The position numbers and the translations under genes were made by a program. From a virus (Duplodnaviria; Heunggongvirae; Uroviricota; Caudoviricetes), in IMG/VR virus record IMGVR_UViG_2874933748_000006: a DNA stretch of 18,304 nucleotides; one strand, written 5' to 3'. How positions within the stretch are numbered: the first letter of the stretch is position 1; every line of letters begins with the position of its first letter. Under the pieces are notes generated by a model. It saw nothing but the letters and a program-made list of their open reading frames with translations, did not search any database and was not told the origin of the DNA. Of this stretch, positions 951-2,103 are shown piece by piece.

Positions 951-1250
951 ATGAGCAGAAAAACCCAACGTTACTCTAAAGAGTTCAAAGCCGAAGCTGT
1001 CAGAACGGTTCTTGAAAATCAACTTTCGATCAGTGAAGGCGCTTCCCGATTATCTCTTCCTGAAGGCACTTTAGGACAATGGGTTACCGCCGCCAGAAAA
1101 GGGCTCGGTACTCCTGGTTCCCGCACGGTGGCTGAACTGGAATCTGAAATTCTGCAACTGCGTAAGGCGTTAAATGAAGCTCGCCTTGAGCGAGATATAT
1201 TAAAAAGCAACAGCGTATTTTGCACAGGAGTCGCTGAAAATACGCGTTAA
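951..1250 (+). CDS. IS3-family OrfA (helix-turn-helix protein), copy with altered C-terminus
   Basis: ATG at 951 preceded by GGAG. The N-terminal two thirds are a typical IS3-family OrfA with a leucine-zipper-like segment. The conserved C-terminal motif KATAYFAQESLK is encoded in the +1 frame at 1204-1239 rather than in this frame. Confidence 0.8.
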   Translation: MSRKTQRYSKEFKAEAVRTVLENQLSISEGASRLSLPEGTLGQWVTAARKGLGTPGSRTVAELESEILQLRKALNEARLERDILKSNSVFCTGVAENTR

Positions 1251-1287
1251 TCGAACAATGGCGACAACAATTTCCCATTGAAGCGAT

Positions 1288-2103
1288 GTGTCAGGTATTT
1301 GGTGTATCCGGGGCGGTTATTACAACTGGGTACAGCATGAACCCTCAGACAGAAAACAAAGTGATGAGCGGCTAAAACTGGAGATTAAGGTGGCACATAT
1401 CCGCACTCGCGAAACATATGGAACCCGGCGGCTCCAGACGGAGCTGGCAGAGAATGGCATCATCGTTGGTCGTGACCGACTGGCACGTCTTCGTAAGGAG
1501 CTAAGGCTACGCTGTAAGCAGAAACGCAAGTTCAGAGCGACTACGAACTCGAACCACAATCTGCCAGTTGCGCCAAATCTGCTGAACCAGACGTTCGCTC
1601 CTACAGCACCAAATCAGGTCTGGGTGGCGGACCTGACGTATGTTGCCACACAGGAGGGATGGTTGTACCTCGCTGGCATCAAAGATGTTTATACGTGCGA
1701 AATTGTCGGCTACGCCATGGGAGAGCGCATGACAAAAGAGCTGACAGGTAAAGCCCTGTTTATGGCGCTCAGGAGCCAGCGCCCACCTGCCGGGCTAATC
1801 CACCACTCTGATCGAGGTTCACAGTACTGCGCATACGATTACCGGGTCATACAGGAGCAGTCTGGTCTGAAAACATCAATGTCGCGTAAAGGTAACTGTT
1901 ACGACAACGCTCCGATGGAAAGCTTCTGGGGAACGCTGAAAAATGAGAGCCTGAGCCACTATCGTTTTAATAACCGGGATGAAGCCATCTCAGTAATACG
2001 GGAATACATTGAGATTTTCTACAATCGTCAGCGTCGTCACTCTCGTCTGGGGAATATCTCCCCGGCAGCCTTCAGGGAAAAATATCATCAGATGGCTGCT
2101 TAA
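1288..2103 (+). CDS. IS3-family OrfB (DDE transposase catalytic core); N-terminal region in a different frame, so no OrfAB fusion frame in this copy
   Basis: Catalytic-core motifs are present (WVADLTYV, HHSDRGSQY, SMSRKGNCYDNAPMESFW, RRHS). The conserved OrfB N-terminus KYALIEQWRQQFPIEAMCQVFGVS is encoded at 1238-1309 in another frame and joins this frame only if one base is restored in tccgggg at 1307-1313. Confidence 0.75.
   Translation: MSGIWCIRGGYYNWVQHEPSDRKQSDERLKLEIKVAHIRTRETYGTRRLQTELAENGIIVGRDRLARLRKELRLRCKQKRKFRATTNSNHNLPVAPNLLNQTFAPTAPNQVWVADLTYVATQEGWLYLAGIKDVYTCEIVGYAMGERMTKELTGKALFMALRSQRPPAGLIHHSDRGSQYCAYDYRVIQEQSGLKTSMSRKGNCYDNAPMESFWGTLKNESLSHYRFNNRDEAISVIREYIEIFYNRQRRHSRLGNISPAAFREKYHQMAA

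Follow-up and report, generated by a model that had tools for sequence, protein, structure and literature searches.

Fused-frame OrfAB mutants have been engineered in IS3-family elements, for example IS911, IS3 and IS150, where they serve as constitutive-transposase constructs. In canonical IS600, the element of Shigella and Escherichia coli with which we are concerned here, the two frames are joined in the context ...ILKK-SNSVFCTGVAE-KYALIEQ.... On the sequencing side, Wick et al. 2019 attributed about 70% of the consensus errors of the then-current ONT basecallers with default models to Dcm motifs, with homopolymer-length errors in second place (PMC6591954).

Here we analysed a stretch of 18,304 bp (hereafter the window) that contains an IS600 copy with broken OrfA and OrfB frames. 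The window matches CP037997.1, the assembly of Shigella sonnei FC1653, with 100% identity (4889/4889). This genome was built from MinION R9 1D reads, for which Albacore 2.0.1 was the basecaller, and from 400-bp Ion Torrent PGM reads, using Unicycler hybrid assembly and Pilon, and 857 pseudogenes were reported in it (PMC6836418). Our comparisons lead us to propose, with a probability of roughly 0.93, that the frame disruptions represent unpolished nanopore-type consensus errors in multi-copy IS cores and would not reflect decay of the IS600 copy.

Boundary and inverted-repeat analysis placed the ends of the element at 5′-TGAGG...CCTCA-3′. The terminal inverted repeats are imperfect and of the form 5′-TG...CA-3′, opening with TGAGGTAGCCTGAG... 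at 887 and closing with ...GTACACCTCA at 2146, and their arms agree at the TGAGGT and GCGGAC/ACGGAC blocks. Among the plasmid matches listed, the element shares 99.1-99.6% nucleotide identity over its full length with annotated IS600, the matched plasmid records carrying the annotation "IS3-like element IS600 family transposase". Domain analysis with Pfam revealed HTH_Tnp_1 in OrfA (1.5e-20) and rve, the DDE integrase core, in OrfB (8.6e-26), together with HTH_21, rve_2 and rve_3. An earlier sequence-only reading had assigned the element to the IS3 family and named IS600 as a reference for alignment, and identity and domain content bear this assignment out. The element lies between a truncated prophage protease gene and a tail-sheath gene (Table 1), and its first bases supply the stop codon of the protease ORF (887-889). 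Within the left inverted-repeat region, position 911 is a G in the window and in the same-locus copy of Ss046, and an A in plasmid copies and in assembly L006 (GCA_016458135.1).

Table 1. Features of the window, with their state as written and the state presumed to be correct
Feature	Position	Strand	Remarks
IS4, 3′ part	1..436	+	Error-free in the window
IS600 copy (IS3 family, IS3 group)	887..2146	+	1260 bp as written; 1264 bp presumed true length
Frame-1 ORF, 99 aa as written	951..1250	+	HTH_Tnp_1; presumed true OrfA, 100 aa
A5 run	1202..1206	+	Presumed true state A7, the A AAA AAG −1 programmed-frameshift site; two bases gone
A4 run	1237..1240	+	Presumed true state A5; one base gone
OrfB body	1288..2103	+	HTH_21 and rve; intact except for lesions at the 5′ end
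CCGGGG	1308..1313	+	Presumed true state CCAGGAG, with Dcm motif CCAGG; one A gone, A to G at 1312
Second A7 run of IS600	2102..2108	+	Correct in the window; 38 bp from the IS end
IS1 copy 1	6565..7331	+	767 bp as written; flanking 9-bp duplication CGTTAAAAC
IS1 copy 2	11751-12518	−	100% identical to the IS1 found there in Ss046; interrupts the baseplate J/gp47 gene

Translation confirmed, in coordinates and in frames, the arrangement originally described from the letters alone, in which OrfA and OrfB motifs are spread over three frames that change at the two A-runs and at the CC/GGGG site. In three-frame translation, frame 1 reads as OrfA from the ATG at 951 as far as the A5 run. The motif KATAYFAQESLK then stands in frame 2 (1204-1239) and KYALIEQWRQQFPIEAMCQVFGVS in frame 3 (1238-1309), while the sequence from GGYYNW onward is in frame 2, inside the ORF at 1288-2103. 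The 99-aa ORF is a chimera that joins OrfA residues 1-85 to SNSVFCTGVAE and then to the final OrfA residues, NTR. Although it is read here in frame 1 between the first two runs, the SNSVFCTGVAE segment is not a meaningless product: it is the linker that OrfAB normally contains, read in the −1 frame.

Alignment with intact IS600 copies and with the same-locus copy of Ss046 revealed four missing bases and one substitution, all at the three sites, which supplies the indel count that the first description had called for. At the slippery run, canonical TTAAAAAAAG appears in the window as TTAAAAAG, shorter by two A; at the second run, GCTGAAAAATAC appears as GCTGAAAATAC, shorter by one A; and at the third site, TATCCAGGAGCGG appears as TATCCGGGGCGG (CCAGGAGC to CCGGGGC), with one A lost and one A changed to G. 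The proposal that every frame change falls at a homopolymer run thus holds for the two A-runs, whereas the third site would be a Dcm-motif miscall. Judged by the intact copies, the true sequence has no homopolymer here, and the GGGG of the window would be the product of a lesion within the CCAGG Dcm motif.

When AA, A and A are added at the three sites and G1312 is changed to A, a 1264-bp element with a 100-aa OrfA is obtained. A −1 slip at A AAA AAG in this repaired copy yields an OrfAB of 385 aa, the size annotated at the same locus in other assemblies. It had been suggested that adding bases at the three runs would be enough to restore the frames; those sites do suffice for the added bases, but full restoration also needs the G-to-A change. 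The repaired copy is one base apart from the Ss046 same-locus copy (T/A at 1433). The −1 position of OrfB relative to OrfA is absent from the window as written and present both in the repaired window and, at this locus, in 23 other S. sonnei assemblies.

Same-locus copies in S. sonnei chromosomes were located by exact-protein look-ups with the 120-aa truncated protease, the tail sheath and the DNA-circularisation protein, and the order at the locus is IS4, truncated S78 protease, IS600 and tail sheath. The IS600 at this position is canonical (1264 bp; A7, A5, CCAGGAGC) in 23 of the 25 other S. sonnei assemblies, including the reference Ss046 (CP000038.1), and A6 is present in the remaining two. 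Neither A4 nor CCGGGGC was found at the locus in any of these 25, and the combination A5/A4/CCGGGGC occurs there only in FC1653 among the S. sonnei assemblies checked. The sequence-only reading had left two explanations standing, a decayed non-autonomous element or an assembly with homopolymer-length errors. The privacy of the lesions to one MinION/Ion Torrent hybrid assembly favours the latter, and the former is not supported, 23 of the 25 other S. sonnei assemblies lacking the lesions at this locus. These comparisons suggest that the element is an ordinary IS600, probably intact at 1264 bp, at a position fixed in S. sonnei.

Comparison over longer distances gave a consistent picture. Along 7,661 bp, the window and Ss046 differ at seven positions, all of them within IS600 or IS1 copy 1. 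When all 18,304 bp were compared with eight assemblies, the private differences of the window consisted of the four IS600 sites and a G4-to-G3 change in IS1 copy 1, and no private difference was found in the unique DNA of this 18.3-kb stretch (about 15 kb non-IS). The window holds 35 Dcm sites, 92 homopolymers of at least 5 bases and 10 runs of at least 7, and its non-IS DNA is free of private differences. The remaining differences across the eight assemblies are singletons in the others, a hexamer VNTR, or polymorphisms common to some strains.

Position 1433, within IS600, is the only other site at which the window differs from most assemblies, having T where Ss046 and most of the eight have A. 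It may represent a strain or lineage polymorphism, because three further S. sonnei assemblies (L013, L017 and L021) also have T at the same locus. A difference between A7 and A8 at 10189 was considered as a further lesion and rejected, the window state being normal for S. sonnei. Other S. sonnei assemblies (L014, L015/L035, L034, L018 and L022/L032) show singleton homopolymer or CCWGG differences of their own, such as CCTGG to CCCGG, T7 to T6, and A7 to A6 in IS600. Unique DNA is affected in some cases, which indicates that residual errors of this kind are common among public Shigella genomes built from long reads.

The neighbouring insertion sequences show a comparable pattern. The core of the IS4 copy whose 3′ part enters the window (L019 2493-3910) lies just upstream of it in CP037997.1 and carries about nine homopolymer/Dcm lesions, among them CCTGG to CCCGG, three garbled CCTGG motifs, C5 to C4 twice, A6 to A4, and C4 to C3. 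No gene is called in this lesioned IS4 copy in CP037997.1, and one substitution in it, G to A at IS4 position 625, lies outside both error classes. In IS1 copy 1, a G3 run at 6964-6966, 366 bp from the nearest IS end, breaks the InsB frame through loss of one G from G4. Caution over this run had been advised from the outset, and rightly so. Because G3 is private to the CP037997.1 assembly, with G4 in 7/7 other assemblies that have this IS1, it appears to belong to the same artefact class and should read G4. In IS1 copy 2, the G4 run at the same distance from the ends as the broken run of copy 1 is correct, and the errors are therefore not uniform or fully systematic across copies.

To relate damage to position, we defined at-risk sites as CCWGG motifs or homopolymers of at least 5 bases and scored them in the IS4 and IS600 of CP037997.1 by distance to the nearest IS end. 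Of 11 sites separated from an IS end by at least 300 bp, 10 were damaged; of nine closer sites, none was (Fisher p = 1.2e-4). The lesions are confined to homopolymers and CCWGG in IS600 and IS1, and nearly so in IS4, contexts that make up 8% of window bases. The two A7 runs of IS600 follow this rule: the slippery run, 315 bp from the end, is damaged and the second run is correct because of their different distances from the IS end. The intact second run was weighed as a contradiction of systematic error and rejected as such, since a site so close to the end can be polished by flank-anchored reads. Widespread homopolymer errors had likewise been expected in a comparison with the closest E. coli prophage (FDAARGOS_944), yet almost none were seen in unique DNA. 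This scarcity was first counted against sequencing error, and was seen differently once the role of repeat cores was recognised.

We propose that Albacore-era basecalling would have under-called homopolymers and miscalled Dcm-methylated CCWGG, and that the 400-bp Ion Torrent reads with Pilon would have fixed these errors wherever the DNA is unique and over the first ~300 bp from either end of an IS. The multi-copy IS cores would have been left unrepaired, because short reads cannot be uniquely placed there. A 400-bp read anchored in unique flank reaches about 300 bp into an IS, which matches the observed boundary. The FC1653 reads themselves would then be expected to show A7, A5 and CCAGGAGC. 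Several observations count against the sequencing-error explanation: the change from A7 to A5 is a loss of two bases, a large under-call; the A5 and A4 pair recurs in L006 at another locus, which could also be read as a real sub-lineage; IS1 copy 2 has its G4 correct; and the substitution at IS4 position 625 belongs to neither class of error.

We also considered how the three sites vary elsewhere. A search of 72,556 plasmids and of 5,426 complete E. coli genomes gave no exact match to window positions 1150-1360. Variation at the same three sites, in mosaic combinations, is seen in six IS600 copies belonging to five other assemblies, with A7, A6, A5 or GA5 at the first run and CCAGGAGC, CCGGGAGC, CCGGGGC, CCAGAGC or CCGAGGAGC at the third site. 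The aberrant 99-aa OrfA is present in a single contig of a 153-billion-gene collection, that of L006, at an unrelated locus. The IS600 copy concerned (2937-4197, between the feaR region and ynbB/ynbC) is 1261 bp long; its two A-runs are A5 and A4, whereas its Dcm site reads CCGGGAGC. We rejected this pair of runs as evidence for a real sub-lineage, given that the third site differs and that the combinations are mosaic across assemblies. Independent context-specific miscalls would fit the recurrence better than a transposing sub-lineage.

Genuine decay of the IS600 copy in FC1653 would mean that real mutations, four deletions and one substitution, had ruined the frameshift site and the N-terminus of OrfB, leaving an element that moves only with transposase supplied in trans. 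We regard this as quite improbable. It would have to place four lesion events within 110 bp in one strain, beside ~15 kb of unique DNA without a private change, at a locus that is fully canonical in 23/25 other assemblies and has A4 or CCGGGGC in 0/25. True indels do likewise prefer homopolymers, and Shigella genomes are rich in IS copies and pseudogenes (PMC6836418); however, a garbled Dcm motif has no obvious mutational rationale, and lesions of these classes recur in the neighbouring IS4 and IS1, in their cores only. The terminal inverted repeats are intact, and mobilisation in trans would be possible in principle.

Less probable still is that A5 is a real, recurrent IS600 variant in which OrfA and OrfB are fused in frame, giving a constitutive OrfAB transposase without ribosomal frameshifting, and that the window copy was later inactivated by its other two lesions. 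The shortening from A7 to A5 does bring the −1-frame linker in frame with OrfA, and A5 occurs in several pINV plasmid assemblies, one of which is annotated with a single 1155-nt transposase CDS. In the older pINV references pWR100 (NC_002698.1) and pCP301 (AF386526.1), by contrast, the best-matching IS600 copy is of canonical length, and other strains have A7 at the window's own locus. The return of A5 with A4 in L006 speaks for the variant, but A5 is accompanied by varying, mosaic garbling of the Dcm site, as expected of independent miscalls. All records of the fused product come from such assemblies; no accurate anchored data support the variant, which may nevertheless hold for other copies. 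The least probable account is that the IS600 core is a repeat-collapse consensus, assembled from reads of many copies and representing no single one. Unicycler does bridge repeats with long-read consensus (PMC6836418), and T at 1433 is shared with three aligned plasmid IS600 copies, unlike Ss046 and most S. sonnei. Against this, T is also present at the same locus in L013, L017 and L021 and may be a lineage polymorphism, and the locus-specific G at 911 has been kept; in any case, such a collapse would be a sub-type of the artefact explanation.

The prophage context records an older event. No 3-bp target duplication is present at the IS600 flanks, which read GAC (884-886) and AGG (2147-2149). 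Relative to the intact related prophage in E. coli AST215 (L005 1453-4961), IS600 stands in place of 3,509 bp of prophage, comprising the rest of the HK97-type protease gene and the major capsid, connector, head closure, tail terminator and DUF2635 genes. Both the missing duplication and the deletion are common to every S. sonnei locus examined. The duplication is missing because ~3.5 kb of prophage beside the element has been lost, which points to an old deletion associated with IS600 or to recombination between IS elements and would not count as evidence against IS600 membership. The missing target duplication, with the 3,509-bp loss, is the only biological peculiarity at the locus.

Several further features of the region were observed. 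A hexamer tandem repeat, GCTGGT, lies in frame in the gpP-like baseplate gene (9696-9713); its copy number varies among S. sonnei assemblies and in comparison with E. coli relatives, and it appears to be a real VNTR. The ORF at 17822-18304 (minus strand) corresponds to a gene with an SmpB Pfam match in orthologous loci, so that the Mu-type-tail prophage remnant abuts smpB. In the closest E. coli-labelled relative, FDAARGOS_944, ipaH lies beside the prophage copy.

Collectively, the broken IS600 frames are almost certainly an artefact and not biology, and the value of the observation is practical rather than biological: in Shigella and E. coli assemblies that are hybrid or date from the nanopore era, insertion sequences can seem frameshifted or "decayed". 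Short-read polishing does not reach IS cores, and such assemblies will therefore give inflated counts of pseudogenised transposases, "non-autonomous" IS and IS sub-lineages. A simple screen for such artefacts is to ask whether the lesions keep to homopolymers or CCWGG and to positions deeper than ~300 bp within multi-copy repeats. Frame breaks elsewhere in the window's repeats, for instance at the G-run of IS1 copy 1, warrant no biological reading.

Set beside the known systems, the element resembles IS600 of Shigella and E. coli in its ends, its domains and its ~99% identity, and it shows the slippery A AAA AAG and the 385-aa OrfAB once four bases are restored. As written, it differs in being four bases short with one A changed to G, which puts the frameshift site and the OrfB N-terminus out of register; on the sequence comparisons made here, we take this difference not to be real. 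The engineered fused-frame mutants of IS911, IS3 and IS150 offer a partial parallel, in that deleting two A from the slippery run puts OrfB in frame with OrfA. In the window, however, the fusion is undone 36 nt on by the second missing A, and sequencing error would explain the whole pattern. The pattern also corresponds to the residual ONT errors of hybrid assemblies, which share the homopolymer under-calls and Dcm CCWGG miscalls, found only in repeat cores, and from which the pattern described here differs in nothing material.
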